From the NCBI GenBank assembly GCA_030635145.1, contig DAOVZK010000005.1, forward strand, positions 16,694 to 80,693: 64,000 nt of DNA, given 5' to 3'. A model generated the notes under the pieces. It searched no databases, was not told the origin of the DNA, and worked only from the letters and a program-made list of their open reading frames with translations. The stretch is from Planctomycetota bacterium (lineage in GTDB: Bacteria > Planctomycetota > Phycisphaerae > SM23-33). Both the position numbers and the translations under genes were made by a program. Shown piece by piece: positions 6,081 to 37,412 of this stretch (position 1 is its first letter; each line of letters opens with the position of its first letter).

Positions 6081-8042
6081 ATGAGTAAAAAGTGCAAAGT
6101 ACATTTTGTTCCCGACGACATAACCGTCGAAGTGCCGGTGGGGTCTACATTGCTGGCTGCTGCCAACGCAGCTGGGGTTTACGTCAACAGTCTTTGCGGT
6201 GGGGACGGTGTCTGCGGGCGATGCCGCGTGATACTTCGCAGCGGAAAAACCACCGGTGAGTCGACGGAGTATTTCACCCACGACGAAATCCGCGCCGGAT
6301 ATATCCTTGCCTGCGAAGCCCGCGCAGAGTCGGACGTCGAAGTTGAAATCCCGCCCGAAACCCGCCAAACCCAAACTGCACCCGAGCACGAAAAACTCAA
6401 AAGCGAAGTTCCGCAACTAAAAGACCTTTCCCGGGGTGCGCAGCGGCAGATCAAACTCGCCCCGCTGATGCAGAAACACTACGTGGAGCTCCCGAAACCC
6501 ACGCTCGAAAATAACGTTTCCGATTTGCAGCGGTTAGAGCAGGAACTCCATAAAGTAGTCCCCGCCGAGGGTTTCCAGATGGGTCTGAAAGTTACGCGGC
6601 GATTACCGAAGATTCTTCGCGACGCTGATTGGAAACTCACCGCAATTACCGGGCATCGCGGGCCGTTGACGGAAATCGTTTCTGTCGAATCCGGCGACAC
6701 CCGCCGCCGCAACATGTGCATAGCAGTCGACATCGGAACGACCACCGTTGTCTGCCATCTCGTCGATCTTCGCGACGGGCAAACGCTCGGGCAGGAGGCG
6801 AAGTACAACTCGCAAGCCAACTACGGTGCCGACGTCATCCGGCGAATCATCCACGCCTCAACGCCCGACGGAGAAAAAGCCCTCCGCGAGGCGATTGTCG
6901 GTGACATTAACGAGCTGATTCACGGGCTTACGCGGCGGTATCATCTCACACAAAACGACATTTCGTTCATCTCGGCAGCGGGTAACACCACGATGCTGCA
7001 TCTGCTGCTGGGGTTACCGTCGGAGAACATTCGCAAGGAACCGTACGTCGGCGTGGCGTATCGGTTACCGGCGTTTCGGGCGGCTGAAATGGGGTTGCAC
7101 ATTAATCCGCGTGGGCTTTTGTATTGCCTCCCATGCGTTGCCGGTTTTGTCGGGGCCGACACCGTAAGCGGAATTTACGCTAGCGGAATGTGCACCAGCG
7201 ACGACGTGCGAATGCTCATCGACATCGGCACTAACGGAGAGATCGTCGTGGGCAACAAAGAATTTCTGGTTTGCGCCAGTGCGTCGGCGGGTCCGGCGTT
7301 TGAAGGTGCCGAGTGCAAATGCGGCATGCGAGCCACCGCCGGTGCCATAGACCATATCCGCCTGCACGACGCCGACCACGTGATGAGCTACTCGACCATT
7401 GGCTCGTCGCCGCCGTTGGGATTTTCCGGTACCGGATACGTAAACATGATCGCCGAAATGCTCCGCGCCGGTGTCATCGACAAAACCGGACGCATGAATC
7501 CCGACGCCTCGAAAACGCAGCTGCGAGAGAGCGAATTCGGCGAGCTGGAATATCTGGTGATACCGGCCGCCCAGACCGGCAACGGAAAAGATATTACCGT
7601 TTCGCAGGGTGACGTAAAAAACATTCTCCGCGCCAAGGCTGCCATTTACGCAGCTGCCACCGTTCTGCTACGTTCGCTTGATATGAGCTTCAGCGACCTG
7701 ACCGAAATCCTCGTGGCCGGTGCGTTTGGAAATTTCCTCAACGTCGACAACGCCGTCTGCATCGGCCTGCTGCCGGATATTTCGCCCGAGCGTCTGCGAT
7801 TTGTAGGTAACAGTTCGTTGGCGGGTGCGAAGTTGGCGGCGCTGTGTTGCGACTGCTACGACGAAATCTTCAATATCGCCGACCGCACCACCTACTTTGA
7901 ACTCAGCACGCAACCGGATTTCATGGACGAGTTCGTGTCGGCGAGTTTTTTTCCGCACACGAACACGGAATTATTCCCATCCGTAAATCTTTTTCCGAAA
8001 ATGCCGAAGATACCGAAAACACAATCCTCGCGAAAGGAATAG
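6081..8042 (+). CDS. Reductive activator of the corrinoid protein (RACo/AcsV-type; N-terminal 2Fe-2S ferredoxin plus ASKHA ATPase)
   Basis: N-terminal CGGDGVCGRCRV plant-type ferredoxin motif, then an approximately 600-aa body typical of the acs-cluster orf7/RACo proteins. The position between acsC and cooC is conserved in acs operons. Confidence 0.8.
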   Translation: MSKKCKVHFVPDDITVEVPVGSTLLAAANAAGVYVNSLCGGDGVCGRCRVILRSGKTTGESTEYFTHDEIRAGYILACEARAESDVEVEIPPETRQTQTAPEHEKLKSEVPQLKDLSRGAQRQIKLAPLMQKHYVELPKPTLENNVSDLQRLEQELHKVVPAEGFQMGLKVTRRLPKILRDADWKLTAITGHRGPLTEIVSVESGDTRRRNMCIAVDIGTTTVVCHLVDLRDGQTLGQEAKYNSQANYGADVIRRIIHASTPDGEKALREAIVGDINELIHGLTRRYHLTQNDISFISAAGNTTMLHLLLGLPSENIRKEPYVGVAYRLPAFRAAEMGLHINPRGLLYCLPCVAGFVGADTVSGIYASGMCTSDDVRMLIDIGTNGEIVVGNKEFLVCASASAGPAFEGAECKCGMRATAGAIDHIRLHDADHVMSYSTIGSSPPLGFSGTGYVNMIAEMLRAGVIDKTGRMNPDASKTQLRESEFGELEYLVIPAAQTGNGKDITVSQGDVKNILRAKAAIYAAATVLLRSLDMSFSDLTEILVAGAFGNFLNVDNAVCIGLLPDISPERLRFVGNSSLAGAKLAALCCDCYDEIFNIADRTTYFELSTQPDFMDEFVSASFFPHTNTELFPSVNLFPKMPKIPKTQSSRKE

Positions 8043-30353: not shown

Positions 30354-30674
30354 ATGGCAAAGCAAGCCAAAAAGGCAACGAAGAAAATCAAAGTCAAGCC
30401 CCTCGGAGAAAAAGTACTAATCAAACGTCTCGAGGCAGATACCATGACCAAGGGCGGAATCGTACTTCCTGACGCCGCCAAGGAAAAACCCATGCAGGGT
30501 ACGGTTCTGGCAATCGGCGACGGGAAACTCATAGATGACGGAACTCGCAGCAAGCTGCAGGTGAAAGTCGGCGAGAAGGTTCTTTTTTCCAGCTATGCCG
30601 GCACCGACATCAAAATCGACGGTGAAGAACTCATGCTCATGGACGAGTCCGACATCCTCGCGATCATCGACTAG
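30354..30674 (+). CDS. groES: Co-chaperonin GroES with an 11-aa Lys-rich N-terminal extension
   Basis: IKVKPLGEKVLIKR ... GGIVLPD ... GTVLAIGDG. Confidence 0.9.
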   Translation: MAKQAKKATKKIKVKPLGEKVLIKRLEADTMTKGGIVLPDAAKEKPMQGTVLAIGDGKLIDDGTRSKLQVKVGEKVLFSSYAGTDIKIDGEELMLMDESDILAIID

Positions 30675-30677
30675 TCA

Positions 30678-30755
30678 CAACTACAATTTTACGTTTTACA
30701 AATTTTACAGTTTTTACGGTTTTTACGGAAGCTACGTAAGCTACGGAAACAGGAG
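30678..30755. repeat. Tandem short repeats in the groES-groEL spacer (about 5 x TTTTACR followed by 2 x AAGCTACG)
   Basis: attttacgttttacaaattttacagtttttacggtttttacggaagctacgtaagctacgg. Confidence 0.5.
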
Positions 30756-30762
30756 ATAAAAA

Positions 30763-32397
30763 ATGGCAAAGAAGAATATTACATTTGATACCGAGGCCCG
30801 CGAAGCGATTCGTCGTGGTGTACAGCAGCTCACCAAAGCGGTAAAAGTTACGCTTGGCCCGACCGGCCGCGTTGTTGTGTTAGAAAAAAGTTTTGGCGCA
30901 CCTACCGTCACGAAAGACGGTGTCAGCGTCGCGAAGGAAATCGAACTCGAAGACGCAAACGAAAACATGGGCGCCCAGATGGTCAAGGAAGTCGCATCGA
31001 AAACTTCCGACGTTGCTGGTGACGGAACGACGACGGCTACGATTTACGCCGAGGCAATCTTCAACGAAGGCCTCAAAAACGTAACCGCCGGTGCCAAGGC
31101 CATGCAGCTGCGCCGCGGAATCGACCTCGCCGTCACCGCCATCGTCGCCGAACTCGGTAAGATGTCGAACCCCGTGCAGACCTCCAAGGAAATCGCCCAG
31201 GTCGGCACCTGTGCCGCAAATCAGGACGTCGAAATCGGCAAGATGATTTCGCAGGCGATGGACAAAGTCGGCAAAGACGGCGTGATTACGGTTGAAGAAG
31301 GCAAGGGCCTCGACACCTACGTCGACCTCGTCGAAGGTATGCAGTTCGACAAAGGTTACATCAGCCCTCACTTCGTCAACAAACCCGAAACGATGGAAGT
31401 CGATTTCGAAAAACCGTTCATTCTGATTTTCGAGAAGAAGATTTCGACCATCAAAGACCTTGTCCCGCTGCTGGAAAAAATCGCACAGTCAGGCCGACCG
31501 CTCGCGATCATTGCCGAAGACGTCGACGGTGAAGCACTCGCGACTTTGGTCGTCAATAAGCTTCGCGGTACATTCCAGTGCGTAGCCATCAAGGCCCCGG
31601 GCTTTGGTGACCGCCGCAAAGAAATGCTCAACGACATTGCCGTCCTCACTGGCGGCAAGGCCATCATGGAAGACATGGGCGTCACGCTCGAGAGTCTCGA
31701 AATTTCCGACCTCGGAACCGCAAAGCGTCTCCGCGTTGACAAGGAAAATACGACCATCATCGAAGGTGCCGGCGCCGAAAAAGACATCGTCGGCCGCATC
31801 GAGCAGATCAAGGCTCAGATCGAAGCGACGACCAGCGACTACGACTGCGAAAAACTCGAAGAACGCCTCGCCAAACTTTCCGGCGGCGTAGCCCAGATCA
31901 ACGTTGGTGCCGCCACCGAAGTTGAAATGAAGGAAAAGAAGGCCCGCGTCGAAGACGCCCTGCACGCCTGCCGTGCTGCCGTCGAAGAAGGCATCCTCCC
32001 AGGTGGTGGCGTTGCCGTTCTGCGAGCCATCAAGGTTCTCAATAAGGTCAAGTGCAGCGACGACGACATCAAAACCGGCGTCGACATCATTCGCCGTGCA
32101 CTCGTAGCCCCCATCAAGCAGATCGCCTCAAACAGCGGACTCGACGGTGCCATCGTCGCCGCCAAGGTCATCGACACCGACGAACAGAACTTTGGTTACA
32201 ATGCCCTTACCGCCAAGTACTGCGACCTTGTCAAAGACGGCGTTATCGTACCGACCAAGGTCGAACGTACGGCCCTCCAAAACGCCGCCAGCGTCGCCGG
32301 TTTGCTGCTGACGACAGATGCAATCGTCTCGGATATCCCCGAGAAAAACGCAGCCCCAGCTATGCCCGACATGGGCGGAATGGGCGGCATGATGTAA
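30763..32397 (+). CDS. groEL: Chaperonin GroEL
   Basis: Full-length 544 aa with an AAVEEG ... GGG-M C-terminal tail (GGMGGMM). Confidence 0.95.
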
Positions 32398-32435
32398 TAG
32401 CGAAATCCGCATAATGCGGGTTGACTGATACAGAA

Positions 32436-32488
32436 ACGGCGGGTTGTGGTTGCCTTCAATAGCTCCCACGGCCCGCCGTTTTTTTTGT
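32436..32488 (+). terminator. Rho-independent terminator after groEL
   Basis: acggcggg ... cccgccgt stem followed by a T8 run. Confidence 0.55.
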
Positions 32489-32543
32489 ACTGGTGCGCTT
32501 TTAAGTTCACACTATTGGTGAATTTGTCAGGTATGGATAATGG

Positions 32544-33152
32544 CTATTGGGGCGTACCTAATTCCGAAGCAGCAGATGTGTAGACTATCATTGTAAGTTC
32601 ACAATCTTTTAATGCTCGGTGAGCCCCTTTCGTTGATAGACCACCAGTTTTGGCTAAATCACCCAGTTTGTAACTTTTTAATCCCGGCCAAGCACGCCTT
32701 GCCATTTTTAAAGCACAAGAGCTTGGGTTATTAATTGTAAGGCCATAATTTTTTGCTGCTGTTTTGAGAAAGCTCATATCAAATTTAGCGTTATATGCAA
32801 CCAAACGTAGATCACCAAAAAATTCCATGAATTCCTTTATTACTGATTCGAGATTTTCACCATCTCTTTCAACCATTTCTTGGGATATGCCAGTAATCTG
32901 TGTGATCTCATTAGGAATTTTTTTACTTGGTTTTATTAGAGCATGAAGGGAGGTGTGGTTATCTGAATCGCGATTTACTTTTACAGCCCCGATCTCAATA
33001 ATTTCATGTTGTGTAGGATCAAGTCCTGTTGTCTCCAAATCAAGAACTATAAATTGCTTTGGGAGCATAGAGAAATTTGCTTTTCTTTTTTTAAATCGAA
33101 AGAAAAGATAAATTCCAGCTACTACCAAGACTAAAATAATAACCCATTCCAT
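32544..33152 (-). CDS. Membrane-anchored DnaQ-like DEDDh 3'-5' exonuclease
   Basis: N-terminal TM helix (WVIILVLVVAGIYLFF); Exo I VLDLETTGL, Exo II AYNAKFDMSFL, Exo III HRALKDCE. Markedly AT-rich gene. Confidence 0.75.
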   Translation of the reverse strand: MEWVIILVLVVAGIYLFFRFKKRKANFSMLPKQFIVLDLETTGLDPTQHEIIEIGAVKVNRDSDNHTSLHALIKPSKKIPNEITQITGISQEMVERDGENLESVIKEFMEFFGDLRLVAYNAKFDMSFLKTAAKNYGLTINNPSSCALKMARRAWPGLKSYKLGDLAKTGGLSTKGAHRALKDCELTMIVYTSAASELGTPQ

Positions 33153-33376
33153 AGTTTCTCCTTCGATCTAACGACAATTCAAGGTTGGTTAATTGATTTT
33201 ACTTTTTCTCCCGTTGGTTTGAGGTCACAAATTGCAACAATGGTATTGTCCTTTTTTACAGCGGGGAAAGCACGTGTTAAATGTGGTAAAATCCCGGCCG
33301 AAAGAAACGACAGGGGCATGGTTAACGCAAATCCGACGGCCATGAACGACCCACCCGCAATCTATGGGGCCTACGT

Positions 33377-34819
33377 TTACTTGCATTCAAGGATCTCTTT
33401 TCCGGAGACTGCCCTATAGAATGTTCTAATAACCGGATGTTCCAGATAAGCGGGTTTTTCGTCGCCCTTGAACTTGAACTCTAAGAGCGATTCGATGTTT
33501 TTATTCGTAAGCGTCTTGAGGAAGCCGTTCCACTGGGCAGCCTCGTCTACAGTCAATCCCTTCGACCAGGCGATATAAGTCATCAAGTCTTTACCGTTTA
33601 GAAAAACCTTCCCGAACTGTTTTTTCTGGATATTTTCGTTGGGCTCAACCCACAGGGCGTAGCAAATGGCGGGGGCTTGTAATTCGTTATTATGAACAGG
33701 AGCATTCCAGGCGATGGTTTTTTTATCTTCATACCATTTCCCGTTGGTGTACAGAGGTTCGGAGGGAACAGCGAGTGATGCGGTCAACTTGTCGGATACG
33801 CCAATGCCGAATCCTAAAGCTGATTGCATGATGTTACCTGTATACTCATTAATAATATCTTTGTCAGGGTTGGCAGAAAAATCTAATTCTTCTTTTTTCT
33901 TACGAAGATATTCTTTTTTGAATTCCGAAAATCCTTCAGTGGATTTTACCGCTTTTTGGAATGCCTCCTCCAAATTTTTTTCAGGATTTTTGATGCAATC
34001 GATCAGGGCAACGGTGAGCGGACCATCTTTTTTGAGGCCGACCTTATTTACCAGAGATTCTCGCAGCACCTCCGAGTAGAGTTTTTCCTTGGACGAGTTT
34101 GAAACAAAGGTATCGTATAGCAGAGGCGGAACCTTTTGGATTGAAACGTAGTTATGCCCAACAAGAAACTGTATCAGGCGGGCGCTTGCGGTGTTTTCCG
34201 GTTTGGGCACAATATCGCGAGCTAATTTCAAATTCTCAGACGATTCAGACACGGGTATGCCCGGTTTTGCTTCGGCGAGTTGATTTTGCGTCGTCCACAT
34301 AAGCAGCAGAAGGGTTTTGCAATCCTTTCGCAGCTGGGTATTGACAAACTTGTCGAGCTTTTCAAACTCGTCCATATCGGCGAATTTTTGCTTGAGAGTC
34401 AGCTGTAAAATATCGACGAGTTTGTCGCCCGCCTCCAGTCGCGTTTTGGCTTGCTCGTACAGATCGTCACTGCCGCCGAAATTTTCAACGTATCCCGTAA
34501 CTGATCCATACTGGCAGGTGTCGTAGGCAACACTACCGTTACCGCCGATATCATTAGGGGTTTTATCTGTGAACTGTCCCTCGAATGTTACTTCACCACC
34601 AACTTTTTTGAAGGCTTTGCGGTTGTAAAGTTTTGCGATGCGATTCGCAATTTCGAGACGTTCATTTTTCATTTTTACAAATTTAACCGTTAGTTTCCGG
34701 TTCAGCACATTGCCCTTGGTGGACATTGTAAGCGTGTATTCTTTGTGCGGACAGCCAGCCAGCAAAAAGACAGACACTGAAAGCAGCAGGGCAATAGCGA
34801 TGTGATGTTTTTTCATCAT
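33377..34819 (-). CDS. Large lipoprotein of unknown function (480 aa), AT-rich
   Basis: Lipobox LLAGC. No recognised domain. Co-located with the exonuclease in an AT-rich islet. Confidence 0.55.
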   Translation of the reverse strand: MMKKHHIAIALLLSVSVFLLAGCPHKEYTLTMSTKGNVLNRKLTVKFVKMKNERLEIANRIAKLYNRKAFKKVGGEVTFEGQFTDKTPNDIGGNGSVAYDTCQYGSVTGYVENFGGSDDLYEQAKTRLEAGDKLVDILQLTLKQKFADMDEFEKLDKFVNTQLRKDCKTLLLLMWTTQNQLAEAKPGIPVSESSENLKLARDIVPKPENTASARLIQFLVGHNYVSIQKVPPLLYDTFVSNSSKEKLYSEVLRESLVNKVGLKKDGPLTVALIDCIKNPEKNLEEAFQKAVKSTEGFSEFKKEYLRKKKEELDFSANPDKDIINEYTGNIMQSALGFGIGVSDKLTASLAVPSEPLYTNGKWYEDKKTIAWNAPVHNNELQAPAICYALWVEPNENIQKKQFGKVFLNGKDLMTYIAWSKGLTVDEAAQWNGFLKTLTNKNIESLLEFKFKGDEKPAYLEHPVIRTFYRAVSGKEILECK

Positions 34820-35077
34820 ATTTCTCCCGTTGGTTTGAGTTTGTAAAACTTAACGTATTATCTGTTTTGGCAGTAACGAATGCACTCAAAAAATGCAGGA
34901 TTGCCGCCGCCGTTTTTTGTGCCATCATAACGGCGATAAAAGCCGTAAATGTTGCTGGTTTACTGCTGGGAAATTTTGCGAAATGTGTTAAAATCCCAGC
35001 GATGAGATCGGCCGTAGTATAAATGGAGTTTTGAAATTGCCTCCAGGCCGATCAGGGGTTAAAACAGGGAGATAAAT

Positions 35078-35482
35078 ATGATTACCCAAGAATTCAGTAT
35101 CAGCACAACCAGTCACGACGCAATGGTCGACATCACTACGGAAGTCGCACGCATGGTAGCCGACAGCGGAATACGGGACGGAACCGTTACCGTTTATACC
35201 CCGCATACGACTTCGGCGATCACGATCAACGAAAACGCCGACCCGGACGTTATTCACGACGTTTTGATGCAGCTGGACAAGATGGTCCCGTGGCATCAGC
35301 CGTTCTACGATCACTGCGAAGACAACAGTGCCGCTCACGTCAAAAGCTCGATGATCGGGGCAAGCGAAACGATCCCTCTCAGTGCCGGGGAAATGACGCT
35401 CGGTGTGTGGCAGGGGATTTACTTCTGCGAATTCGACGGGCCACGCGGCAGAAGATTCATCGTCAACATAACCGGGCGATAG
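35078..35482 (+). CDS. YjbQ/UPF0047-family protein (secondary thiamine-phosphate synthase-like)
   Basis: VTVYTPHTTSAITINEN ... SAAHVKSS ... GVWQGIYFCEFDGPR. Confidence 0.85.
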   Translation: MITQEFSISTTSHDAMVDITTEVARMVADSGIRDGTVTVYTPHTTSAITINENADPDVIHDVLMQLDKMVPWHQPFYDHCEDNSAAHVKSSMIGASETIPLSAGEMTLGVWQGIYFCEFDGPRGRRFIVNITGR

Positions 35483-35808: not shown

Positions 35809-36135
35809 TTGCTTCCTCATCAGGCTGAATGTTGGCGATGTACGGGTGTCCGGACGCAGTGTTCTGTTTTTAATGACGAAGGTGCGATTGCTGCGTATCG
35901 GGCGTTCCGCGACTTGTCGCTGAGTATTCCAGGTGATGTTGCGATTGTCGGCTGTAATGGTATAGAGGATACGGAATATCTGGATGTTCCTATCAGCACG
36001 CTAATGATGCCCTCGGATGAATTAAGCAGTGTGGCGTGGGACTTTATGGAACGGCGGATGTGGAACTCAGACGCTCCCCGCCAGGAAATGATATTAAAAC
36101 CCAAATTGGTTATTCGTGAATCTTCACAGGCATAG
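35809..36135 (+). pseudogene. C-terminal fragment of a LacI-family regulator (ligand-binding domain tail only)
   Basis: PGDVAIVGCNGIEDTEYLDVPISTL matches the LacI C-terminal consensus (PeDisvvGfDd...PpLTTv). No in-frame upstream continuation exists. Confidence 0.4.
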
Positions 36136-36286: not shown

Positions 36287-36898
36287 CTAGACTTGCCGGA
36301 TCACACCGATAACGACGCCCTGTACGGTAACATCGTCTACATAAATGGGATCGTATTTTTCATTCGCCGGTTGGAGGCGCACTCGCCCATCTTCGCGATA
36401 CATTTTCTTAAGCGTAGCATCCCCATCCGGGAGCAACGCGACGACAGTCTCGCCATTTCTCGCGGTATTACGCTGCTGGCAGATCACAAGATCGCCATTG
36501 CAGATATGATCCTCGACCATACTATCGCCGCTGACCTCCAGCACAAACGTATTACCATTGGCGGGGAACATATCTCGCAGGTCGATAGTCTCCGGCCGCT
36601 CAACCGCCTCGATTGGATTTCCCGCGGCAATCCGCCCAGCCAGGGGCAGCTTATTTTCCATGTCCTGCTGATCGGGAAGCTCTACGTCATCAGACAGCTG
36701 TAAAGAGCGAGCGCTGTGTTTGGCTCCCCGCGACAGCAGACCTTTTTTTTCTAGTGCTCCGACGTGCTCGAACACGGTTACCTTTGTTAGACCCAAGTGA
36801 TCCCCAATCTCCTGCATCGTCGGGGAATAACCGTGCTGCATCCGATAATTCTGTATCAGCTGTAAGATTTCGAGTTGTCGCGGTGTTACAGGTTGCAT
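36287..36898 (-). CDS. lexA: LexA repressor
   Basis: N-terminal wHTH (LTPRQLEIL ... GYSPT.QEIG) and a C-terminal S24 peptidase with the AG cleavage site and Ser/Lys dyad (GDSM ... KKM). The start at 36898 is preceded by a GGAGAA RBS. Confidence 0.9.
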   Translation of the reverse strand: MQPVTPRQLEILQLIQNYRMQHGYSPTMQEIGDHLGLTKVTVFEHVGALEKKGLLSRGAKHSARSLQLSDDVELPDQQDMENKLPLAGRIAAGNPIEAVERPETIDLRDMFPANGNTFVLEVSGDSMVEDHICNGDLVICQQRNTARNGETVVALLPDGDATLKKMYREDGRVRLQPANEKYDPIYVDDVTVQGVVIGVIRQV

Positions 36899-37412
36899 TT
36901 TCGTTCTCCTGTTGGTTTGCACTCGGATGCGTCTTTTTATCCAAGCTATCCAAGCTATCCAAAATGGGCATATCGCTCTCGACACGCTGCGAAGTTCGCT
37001 TTATCATAGCGACCTGTTCAACCGGGCACGACGCCTCGGCCAAAACGCAGGAACTGCTATGCTGCAGCGGTAGTGTCGCCAGTTTCGCGTCGGCAGCTGC
37101 AATCTGCGAAGCCACCAACTGCTCGTCGCTCATAGCAGCGGGACTAATGCGCCGCAACACATCCAGCACCGACTTGACAACGCCCTTGACCTGCGAAGAC
37201 TCTTCCTTCTTCCGCCAAGTCAAACCAGCAGCACTTGTGCTGACTAAATCCGGCTCCAGGCCGAGATCCGCCGCCAGCCGTGCAAAGCCTTTGCGTTTTT
37301 GCTCTTCTAAATCAACGTCATGTGGAATCACATCGCCCGACTTCGGCCAGGCCTTCCTGTAATCTCCACCCGAACCAAACTGGCATAATGGAGGGTTATT
37401 CATGGTATCCAT
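36899..37412 (-). CDS. Hypothetical ORF upstream of lexA (3' end uncertain; the reading frame runs about 200 nt into lexA)
   Basis: The track ORF 36690..37412 has no stop before lexA. The tandem TGGATAGCT repeats at 36941-36960 fall inside it (coding DSLDSLD). May be non-coding. Confidence 0.25.

Follow-up and report, generated by a model that had tools for sequence, protein, structure and literature searches.

A 64-kb stretch from a Planctomycetota bacterium of the class Phycisphaerae (assembly GCA_030635145.1, contig DAOVZK010000005.1), referred to here as the window, carries two adjacent genes on its minus strand, one for a DEDDh exonuclease with a predicted membrane anchor and the other for a large predicted lipoprotein, and the question is whether these two form a single acquired unit or stand side by side by chance. 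A sequence-only reading of the locus had taken them for an AT-rich, horizontally acquired two-gene islet next to lexA, sharing a leader motif with it and forming a candidate SOS-linked or anti-phage nuclease module. Both open reading frames (ORFs) are indeed present as that reading had drawn them. However, the comparison with 201 fetched loci (designated by L-numbers) points to a different history, in which the exonuclease gene very probably descends from an integron gene cassette and the lipoprotein gene is an unrelated resident, the two being adjacent by accident. The features needed first are as follows.

32544..33152, minus strand: exonuclease gene, 202 aa, a DEDDh (DnaQ/PolC-exo-like) 3'-5' exonuclease with a predicted signal-anchor helix at about residues 3-19, followed by RFKKRK.
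32497..33171, minus strand: cassette-derived DNA (~675 bp), with its own ribosome-binding site, the ORF and the first half of attC.
33166..33172, minus strand: integron core site GTTAGAT (GTTRRRY), with the crossover between G33172 and T33171 as the 5' cassette boundary.
32526..32532, minus strand: attC R'' remnant ACCTGAC, where relatives read ACCTAAC.
32497..32525, minus strand: decayed attC interior with an AAA spacer, a short hairpin TTCAC/GTGAA and AAAAGC, its L' and R' partners gone.
33205..33298, minus strand: duplicate of the lipoprotein promoter and 5' leader, 94 nt, host DNA outside the cassette.
33377..34819, minus strand: lipoprotein gene, 480 aa (predicted), lipobox LLAGC, a member of a large uncharacterised family and outside the cassette.

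The core site of integrons follows the consensus GTTRRRY, and an attC site is an imperfect palindrome of the order R''-L''...L'-R' that, when single-stranded, folds on itself and leaves some bases extrahelical. Around the exonuclease gene of the window, blastn homology was found confined to 33174-32515, that is from about 22 nt 5' of the ATG to about 30 nt 3' of the stop codon, with 83% identity over 661 nt to L007 and L008, 79% to L009 and 70% to L189; the alignment carries the 3' similarity on to AAAAGC at 32502-32497, about 45 nt past the stop. The flanks are unrelated from locus to locus, so the same ORF is met in varied contexts with homology limited to the cassette. The homology to other copies starts no more than 3 nt from the G|TT crossover of the core site. 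At the same position the relatives read GTTAGGT (L007, L025, L187 and L191), GTTGGAT (L009) or GTTAGAC (L185), all of which fit GTTRRRY, and in these six loci as in the window GTTRRRY lies 20-25 nt ahead of the ATG and RYYYAAC 10-20 nt past the stop. At the upstream edge of the cassette, AACCAAC-N11-GTTAGAT (33166-33190) gives a weak R-box match (6.7 bits, E 0.25), which may be due to chance or mark the collapsed attC of a cassette that once lay upstream.

In the relatives the attC sites are recognisable as such. R'' is complementary at six of six positions to the first hexamer of the cassette in L007, L025 and L187, and in L012 the two covary, TGCTAAC pairing with TTAGCA, as they should if a single attC gave rise to both. 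The bottom-strand folds show an R box, an unpaired spacer and a bulged L box (L191, -28.8 kcal/mol, z -5.9; L187, z -6.2), and those of two neighbouring cassettes in L191 reach z -8.7 and -2.8. An RNAalifold consensus of seven sites has 13 pairs, five of them with compensatory changes. A covariance model (R1) built from these sites detected 19 sites, which are distributed over 18 sources and all lie on the same strand. The sites of L191, L187, L007, L012 and L009 score 50-70 bits, all five having been used in building the model; 10 further sites outside its training set also score, and five untrained sites in L191 have E values from 1e-9 to 6e-5. In L007 (3382-3439, E 2.6e-4) and in L025 (E 0.004) R1 also detected the attC that belongs to the cassette just before that of the exonuclease, and in L007 the core site of the exonuclease cassette is the R' end of that preceding attC. 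The model had replaced a home-made scan for generic attC sites by regular expression and folding, which was dropped because it gave many matches inside coding regions and no discrimination.

Furthermore, relatives of the gene stand in true arrays beside integron integrases. Homolog P0047 occupies the third position in a cassette array that has at least eight attC sites and starts beside a divergent, interrupted intI fragment (TIGR02249, E=2.7e-26); such a divergent integrase fragment adjoins the array in L191 and in L193-L198, and L185 retains an integrase remnant of 48 aa. Some observations on these loci stand apart from the argument. L191 1-5923, seen also in L193-L198 and L192, is a metagenomic integron with at least eight same-strand attC sites, in which the integrase gene appears interrupted, its frame being split with about 150 nt inserted; the exonuclease shares it with cassettes for a methyltransferase, an Imm-NTF2-2 immunity protein and a membrane protein of 120 aa, among others. 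In L185 a group II intron (RF02005, 174.7 bits) lies at 7776-7995, about 80 nt past the exonuclease attC, and its reverse transcriptase ORF was located at 8103-9578 in L186.

The exonuclease family is widespread. A protein search gave at least 120 clusters of about 201 aa with 52-100% identity to the window protein; the named homologs belong to Phycisphaerae, Betaproteobacteria, Terriglobia and Candidatus Acidoferrum, with one further member in a metagenome-assembled genome (MAG) of Desulfobacterales, and the window protein itself is identical to one labelled as from a Phycisphaerae MAG. A scan of genome contigs with the single protein recovered one close relative, L012, the rest being distant DEDDh genes, and a metagenome scan gave about nine close loci, mostly on short contigs. 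In most of 16 close loci the G+C content (GC) of the exonuclease gene lies under that of both flanks, for example 0.46 against 0.62-0.65 in L187. The window copy has a GC of 0.368 and a GC at third codon positions (GC3) of 0.266, the lowest among about 55 ORFs of the window, for which 0.63-0.69 (about 0.65) is typical.

The encoded protein is a DEDDh exonuclease, as the sequence-only reading had recognised from its Exo motifs and histidine. It matches PF00929 (RNase_T) at E=1e-35, with 124 bits against a cut-off of 24, and D38 and E40 (Exo I, DxE), D125 (Exo II) and H178 and D183 (Exo III, H-x4-D) are invariant in an alignment of 18 sequences; the C-terminus follows about 10 residues past Exo III. 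The closest solved structures are the PolC exonuclease domain 2p1j (E=2e-28), DnaQ 8h18 and Cas2-DEDDh 8fy9, within a range of 2e-28 to 6e-24, and further PDB matches include the DinG exonuclease domain, the Pol III epsilon subunit and ExoX; these best matches suggest, by likeness of sequence, activity as a DNA 3'-end exonuclease. The ORF is intact, all catalytic residues are kept, and the ratio of nonsynonymous to synonymous substitution rates (0.235 against L007, 0.165 against L009 and 0.085 against L189) indicates that purifying selection persists. C146, C184 and the motif SCALKMARRAWPG, all outside the canonical Exo motifs, are nearly or fully invariant across the family. In L029 and L031 the exonuclease frame runs on into ORFs of 359 and 463 aa, possibly fusions with an extra C-terminal domain.

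An intact gene under purifying selection, whose product passes the generic dnaQ domain model TIGR00573 (94.7 against a cut-off of 71.5 bits), might be taken for a vertically inherited housekeeping DnaQ paralog with odd codon usage. That model is the only one of its kind to be passed: the DNA polymerase III epsilon equivalogs are missed by far (PRK05711, 97.6 against 196 bits; TIGR01406, 96.8 against 222.7) and the PolC equivalogs likewise, from which it follows that the exonuclease is not a replicative proofreader. Vertical descent is also opposed by the lowest GC3 of the window, by copies in unrelated contexts with 80-81% protein and 83% DNA identity, by copies in other phyla at 60% identity or more, and by the place of the relatives in cassette arrays, so that housekeeping descent deserves next to no credence.

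The pair itself has to be considered within its neighbourhood, which consists of the following features.

30354-32397, plus strand: groES-groEL, downstream of the exonuclease gene and convergent with it.
32434-32481, no strand assigned: inverted repeat that forms a hairpin rich in G+C, with a plus-strand T-run, and is the presumed groEL terminator.
34820..35077, no strand assigned: divergent intergenic region between yjbQ and the lipoprotein gene, with the latter's own promoter element at 34981-34997 and leader motif at 34822-34837.
35078-35482, plus strand: yjbQ (UPF0047; PF01894, E=2.7e-41), divergent from the lipoprotein gene.
36287-36898, minus strand: lexA, with the Pfam domains LexA_DNA_bind and Peptidase_S24, from residue 30 of a longer ORF.

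A horizontally acquired module of two genes, SOS-linked or anti-phage and co-regulated with lexA through a shared leader, was the explanation first put forward for this arrangement. The genes are adjacent on the same strand, a consensus scan predicts no terminator between them, and both lie under the GC of their flanks: windowed GC is 0.52-0.58 in the flanks with groEL, yjbQ and lexA and falls to 0.34-0.48 at 32.4-35.0 kb. The dip is thus real, but the two genes differ greatly within it. The exonuclease gene is the extreme one, and the lipoprotein gene, with a GC of 0.448 and a GC3 of 0.509, lies in a low tail that it shares with about 10 other ORFs of the window; a GC3 gap of 0.27 to 0.51 within one supposed unit speaks against such a module. 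The comparison that the sequence-only reading had itself named as able to refute it, that of synteny of the pair in other genomes, found no second instance among the 201 loci, of which 191 hold a DEDDh exonuclease homolog, 9 a lipoprotein homolog and none both. No neighbouring gene is common to the 16 close exonuclease loci, and the homology of the exonuclease copies stops about 200 nt short of the lipoprotein gene. From the other side, L010 and L011 have the lipoprotein gene in synteny with yjbQ and no exonuclease gene.

The lipoprotein gene has its own history. The N-terminus of its product, MMKKHHIAIALLLSVSVFLLAGC, has a signal peptide and a lipobox that fits [LVI][ASTVI][GAS]C, with the equivalent cysteine present in all eight homologs whose N-terminus is complete, and it is thus a predicted lipoprotein. 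No match to the 480-aa protein was found in Pfam, NCBIfam or PADLOC, in a profile search of PDB sequences, or by Foldseek against the PDB. The absence of a recognisable domain therefore stands as first described, but the protein is no orphan: a word-indexed search gave nine relatives, and a profile search of 1.84 billion representatives gave 1,109 at E<=0.001, of which 731 at E<=1e-30 were all full length. The few members that are named belong to Phycisphaerae or Planctomycetota. Orthologs divergent from yjbQ, as in the window, were found in L006 (66% identity) and in L010 and L011 (36-37%); in L010 the gene after the lipoprotein is that of a dihydroorotate dehydrogenase, not an exonuclease, and more distant members lie in unrelated housekeeping contexts. 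The GC3 of the lipoprotein gene is lower than that of yjbQ in three genomes (0.509 against 0.689 in the window, 0.466 against 0.559 and 0.664 against 0.756 in the others), so its low GC looks intrinsic to the gene and is no sign of recent transfer. Horizontal acquisition, which had been claimed for both genes, therefore holds for the exonuclease gene and was rejected for the lipoprotein gene, since the deficit recurs in L006 and L010. The gene belongs to the lineage as a resident that has stayed next to yjbQ, and its product is a predicted envelope protein. The AlphaFold model of this protein (mean predicted local distance difference test score, pLDDT, 77.8) has a beta-sheet domain split by a helical bundle, and as modelled the beta-sheet part weakly resembles the mycobacterial LppM (Rv2171, PDB 2nc8), from which it differs in having three times the length and a large helical insert; the identity is 12%, with no sequence, Pfam or Foldseek match between the two. 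With more than 1,100 representatives and no annotated domain, these predicted envelope lipoproteins make up a large family that has so far gone without annotation.

What remained in favour of a common regulation was the 16-nt leader motif CAAACCAACRGGAGAA, which stands upstream of both genes and of lexA. It has exactly three copies in 64 kb, all on the minus strand (33206-33221, 34822-34837 and 36904-36919), and none of the shuffled sequences attained three matches, so that this part of the earlier claim is sound. Each copy holds a Shine-Dalgarno sequence within an A/C-rich leader that is not palindromic, and the copies of the lipoprotein gene and of lexA lie 2 nt and 5 nt, respectively, ahead of the ATG; the motif thus has the make-up of a leader with a ribosome-binding site and offers no palindromic operator. 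Furthermore, the copy on the exonuclease side belongs to duplicated host DNA. The block 33205-33298 aligns over 93-94 nt, at 85-86% identity, with the entire spacer between yjbQ and the lipoprotein ortholog in L006, and it contains both GGGATTTTACCACATTT (33279-33295) and CAAACCAACGGGAGAA (33206-33221). The element GGGATTTTAMCACATTT has two full copies only in the window, one in this block and the other in the lipoprotein gene's own promoter. This local duplication of 94 nt explains two of the three copies of the motif, and since the copy on the exonuclease side lies in the duplicate, outside the transferred unit, the motif is not evidence of SOS control. A remnant of yjbQ beside the duplicate was searched for and none was found. 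The yjbQ-lipoprotein intergenic region measures 258 nt in the window and about 110 nt in L006, with about 86 nt extra in the window at 34838-34980, between the promoter element and the leader.

The third copy (36904-36919) directly precedes the ATG at 36898, which is therefore the probable true start of lexA rather than the GTG upstream. The mechanically called lexA ORF (36287-36985, minus strand) starts at this GTG, 29 codons upstream of the ATG, and AGGAGAA stands ahead of the latter. An ORF of 240 aa without a Pfam match (36690-37412, minus strand) overlaps the 5' end of lexA in another frame, so that no more than one of the overlapping readings can be right in full. Some 40 nt ahead of the lexA start, GGATAGCTT GGATAGCTT forms a tandem repeat. 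To our knowledge no LexA operator consensus is available for Phycisphaerae; no LexA operator was identified here, and no search for one was made. The proximity of lexA has no demonstrated link to the two genes. Taken with the separate occurrence of the two genes and their unlike composition, this leaves the SOS-linked or anti-phage two-gene module very improbable, and it is not to be pursued as such. Between yjbQ and lexA, an ORF of 108 aa (35809-36135, plus strand), which matches only positions 82-167 of 167 of PF13377 (E=1.3e-14), looks like the remnant of a truncated LacI-type regulator, namely the C-terminal half of its periplasmic-binding-like domain, and suggests a past rearrangement of this stretch. 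An Rfam scan of the window from 28 to 40 kb gave no match.

For the cassette descent, the following course of events can be proposed. The source would be a cassette family in circulation among Acidobacteriota, Betaproteobacteria, Desulfobacterales and Planctomycetota, and within it a lineage of low GC. One cassette would have landed alone in this Phycisphaerae genome, where it is solitary, with no intI or other attC within 64 kb. Its attC would then have lost the 3' half, after which an integron integrase could no longer excise it, and the window cassette should be immobile now. Being promoterless, it would be transcribed from the 94-nt duplicate, which ends about 30 nt upstream. That the duplicate probably drives transcription of the exonuclease gene is suggested because cassettes have no promoter of their own and inserted cassettes are expressed near a resident promoter; read-through from the lipoprotein gene is also possible. 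As to the origin of the duplicate, it may stem from a second copy of the lipoprotein gene into which the cassette inserted and which later disappeared together with half of the attC, or from a pre-assembled segment imported from a relative.

Several observations weigh against this account. The window copy itself has neither a foldable attC nor an integrase or array nearby: its remnant folds at z=-0.05, R1 gives it 3.7 bits (E 1.8, 32465-32532) with filters off and detects no attC at E<=1 over the whole window, and tblastn with an IntI1 probe, which did detect the integrase fragments in other loci, found no IntI-like sequence there. The cassette nature therefore rests on the homologous copies, the 5' core site and the R'' remnant. 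The 3' junction is destroyed, so that insertion at this site by an integrase cannot be shown; the attC remnant abuts the presumed groEL terminator hairpin at a distance of about 16 nt. The roughly 30 nt that separate the promoter duplicate from the core site have no clear source. A scan for sigma-70 consensus on the minus strand upstream of the exonuclease gene gave no promoter, so that its expression is put forward as likely from context. Members L026-L028 have no recognisable attC. Close members, at 55% identity or more, were not found in phage and plasmid collections or among the viral matches listed; the phage, plasmid and IMG/VR matches (the viral ones among the matches listed) are to generic DEDDh domains at no more than 43% identity with the N-terminal anchor unmatched, and hence give no evidence of a phage- or plasmid-borne exonuclease family. 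Finally, the matches in PADLOC-DB 2.0 are at the level of the domain and lend no direct backing to a role in defence: only the exonuclease domain is covered, by the generic model for Cas-associated DEDDh proteins, by a model of an effector exonuclease and by PDC-S48, of which the first 160 positions out of 411 are matched, and no partner genes of the PADLOC systems are present beside the exonuclease gene.

Some of these points bear on the manner of arrival more than on the descent. The gene may be cassette-descended and yet not have been placed here by integron-integrase recombination; for example, the 5' end of the lipoprotein gene of a relative could have taken the cassette, and the promoter, a few codons and the exonuclease could then have been moved or duplicated by homologous or illegitimate recombination. 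The promoter copy is in fact nearer to the upstream region of L006 (the 85-86% given above) than to that of the window's own lipoprotein gene (76% over 76 nt), and the stretch of about 30 nt behind the leader bears a loose likeness to the opening codons of the lipoprotein gene. The missing 3' half of attC, the missing target-site junction and 64 kb without an integrase fit this alternative as well. However, the homology to other cassettes begins almost exactly at the canonical crossover, the insertion of about 86 nt in the window's own lipoprotein promoter lowers the similarity, which makes the comparison of promoters not decisive, and the integron search was confined to the 64-kb window, the rest of the genome lying outside it. 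An arrival by such other recombination appears unlikely, and a cassette-derived gene, presumably inserted by an integrase, beside an unrelated resident gene remains the preferred explanation.

The single N-terminal transmembrane helix described by the sequence-only reading is real, and the segment that forms it, MEWVIILVLVVAGIYLFFRFKKRK, is a feature of the family rather than private to the window protein: 106 of 120 homologs have a hydrophobic window of 17 residues ahead of the DxETTG motif. The mean net charge is -0.21 ahead of the helix and +2.88 over the ten residues that follow. By the positive-inside rule, this charge asymmetry predicts a cytoplasmic catalytic domain, held by an uncleaved N-out/C-in signal anchor at the inner membrane. 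There the enzyme would most likely trim or destroy the 3' ends of nucleic acids, for example those of incoming foreign DNA, which would make it a single-gene cassette of the defence type. A defence-type role is possible, and such a function at the membrane is the most appealing guess, though one of low probability. More speculatively, and on balance doubtful, the family might be an undescribed integron-borne, single-gene immunity determinant that digests the 3' ends of entering nucleic acid at the cytoplasmic face of the inner membrane, its targets being transforming or conjugative single-stranded DNA or phage genomes. If so, immunity would explain why the cassette is conserved, at 55-80% protein identity, over at least four phyla, and the window would offer a natural example of how such a cassette becomes fixed outside an integron, namely by capturing a duplicate of a host promoter. 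A widespread uncharacterised cassette family for a membrane-anchored DnaQ-like exonuclease is, in any case, a reasonable candidate for functional screening of defence cassettes; a limited literature search returned no description of such a family.

Among known enzymes, PolC exonuclease, DnaQ and Cas2-DEDDh (2p1j, 8h18 and 8fy9) share the DEDDh fold and the catalytic residues with the exonuclease described here, which in contrast is a stand-alone domain of 170 aa with an N-terminal anchor, without a polymerase, Cas2, helicase or clamp-binding partner region. TREX1 is a mammalian DEDDh 3'-5' DNA exonuclease whose C-terminal anchor lies in the endoplasmic reticulum with the catalytic domain facing the cytosol. 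It resembles the window protein in being a DEDDh exonuclease tethered by one helix, but its anchor is C-terminal and that of the window protein N-terminal, and the likeness is one of analogy, with no specific homology beyond the superfamily. Stand-alone antiviral DEDDh exonucleases, namely human ISG20 and the bacterial TONDOs on mobile elements, defend by trimming the 3' ends of viral nucleic acid, and enzymes of this sort can act against RNA phages (PMC13344964). The likeness here is that of a single-gene DEDDh exonuclease on a mobile element; the difference is that those are RNA exonucleases of the ISG20 clade, ISG20 being absent from the PDB matches of the window protein, and the TONDO paper makes no mention of transmembrane segments (PMC13344964).

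Among cassettes, many of unknown function were found to be phage-defence genes (BRiCs), about one third of them with transmembrane helices, and one of these, Brc128B, has a putative exonuclease domain (10.1101/2024.07.02.601719). The exonuclease cassette is like the BRiCs, by description, in being small, with one or two genes and no assigned function, and in carrying the transmembrane helix that about a third of them have; it differs in that its family comes from environmental chromosomal arrays and not from clinical mobile integrons. Solitary cassettes (SALINs) and integrase-mediated insertion at genomic GWT sites (attG) have been described, and a cassette so inserted is expressed if a resident promoter lies close by (10.1101/2022.09.11.507474). 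The window copy shares with these a lone promoterless ORF with a GTTRRRY core site in a chromosome, whose expression would hang on a nearby resident promoter, and it has relatives in true arrays beside intI. Without the 3' half of its attC it is by definition not a SALIN, and it further differs in that its host is a Phycisphaerae MAG and its upstream promoter a local duplicate of that of the neighbouring gene. In conclusion, the locus would be a clear example, from nature, of an integron cassette that became stranded in the chromosome of a Planctomycetota bacterium, with a decayed attC and a duplicated resident promoter upstream, and would illustrate the spread of cassettes into genomes that Loot et al. 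proposed from experiments in E. coli (10.1101/2022.09.11.507474).

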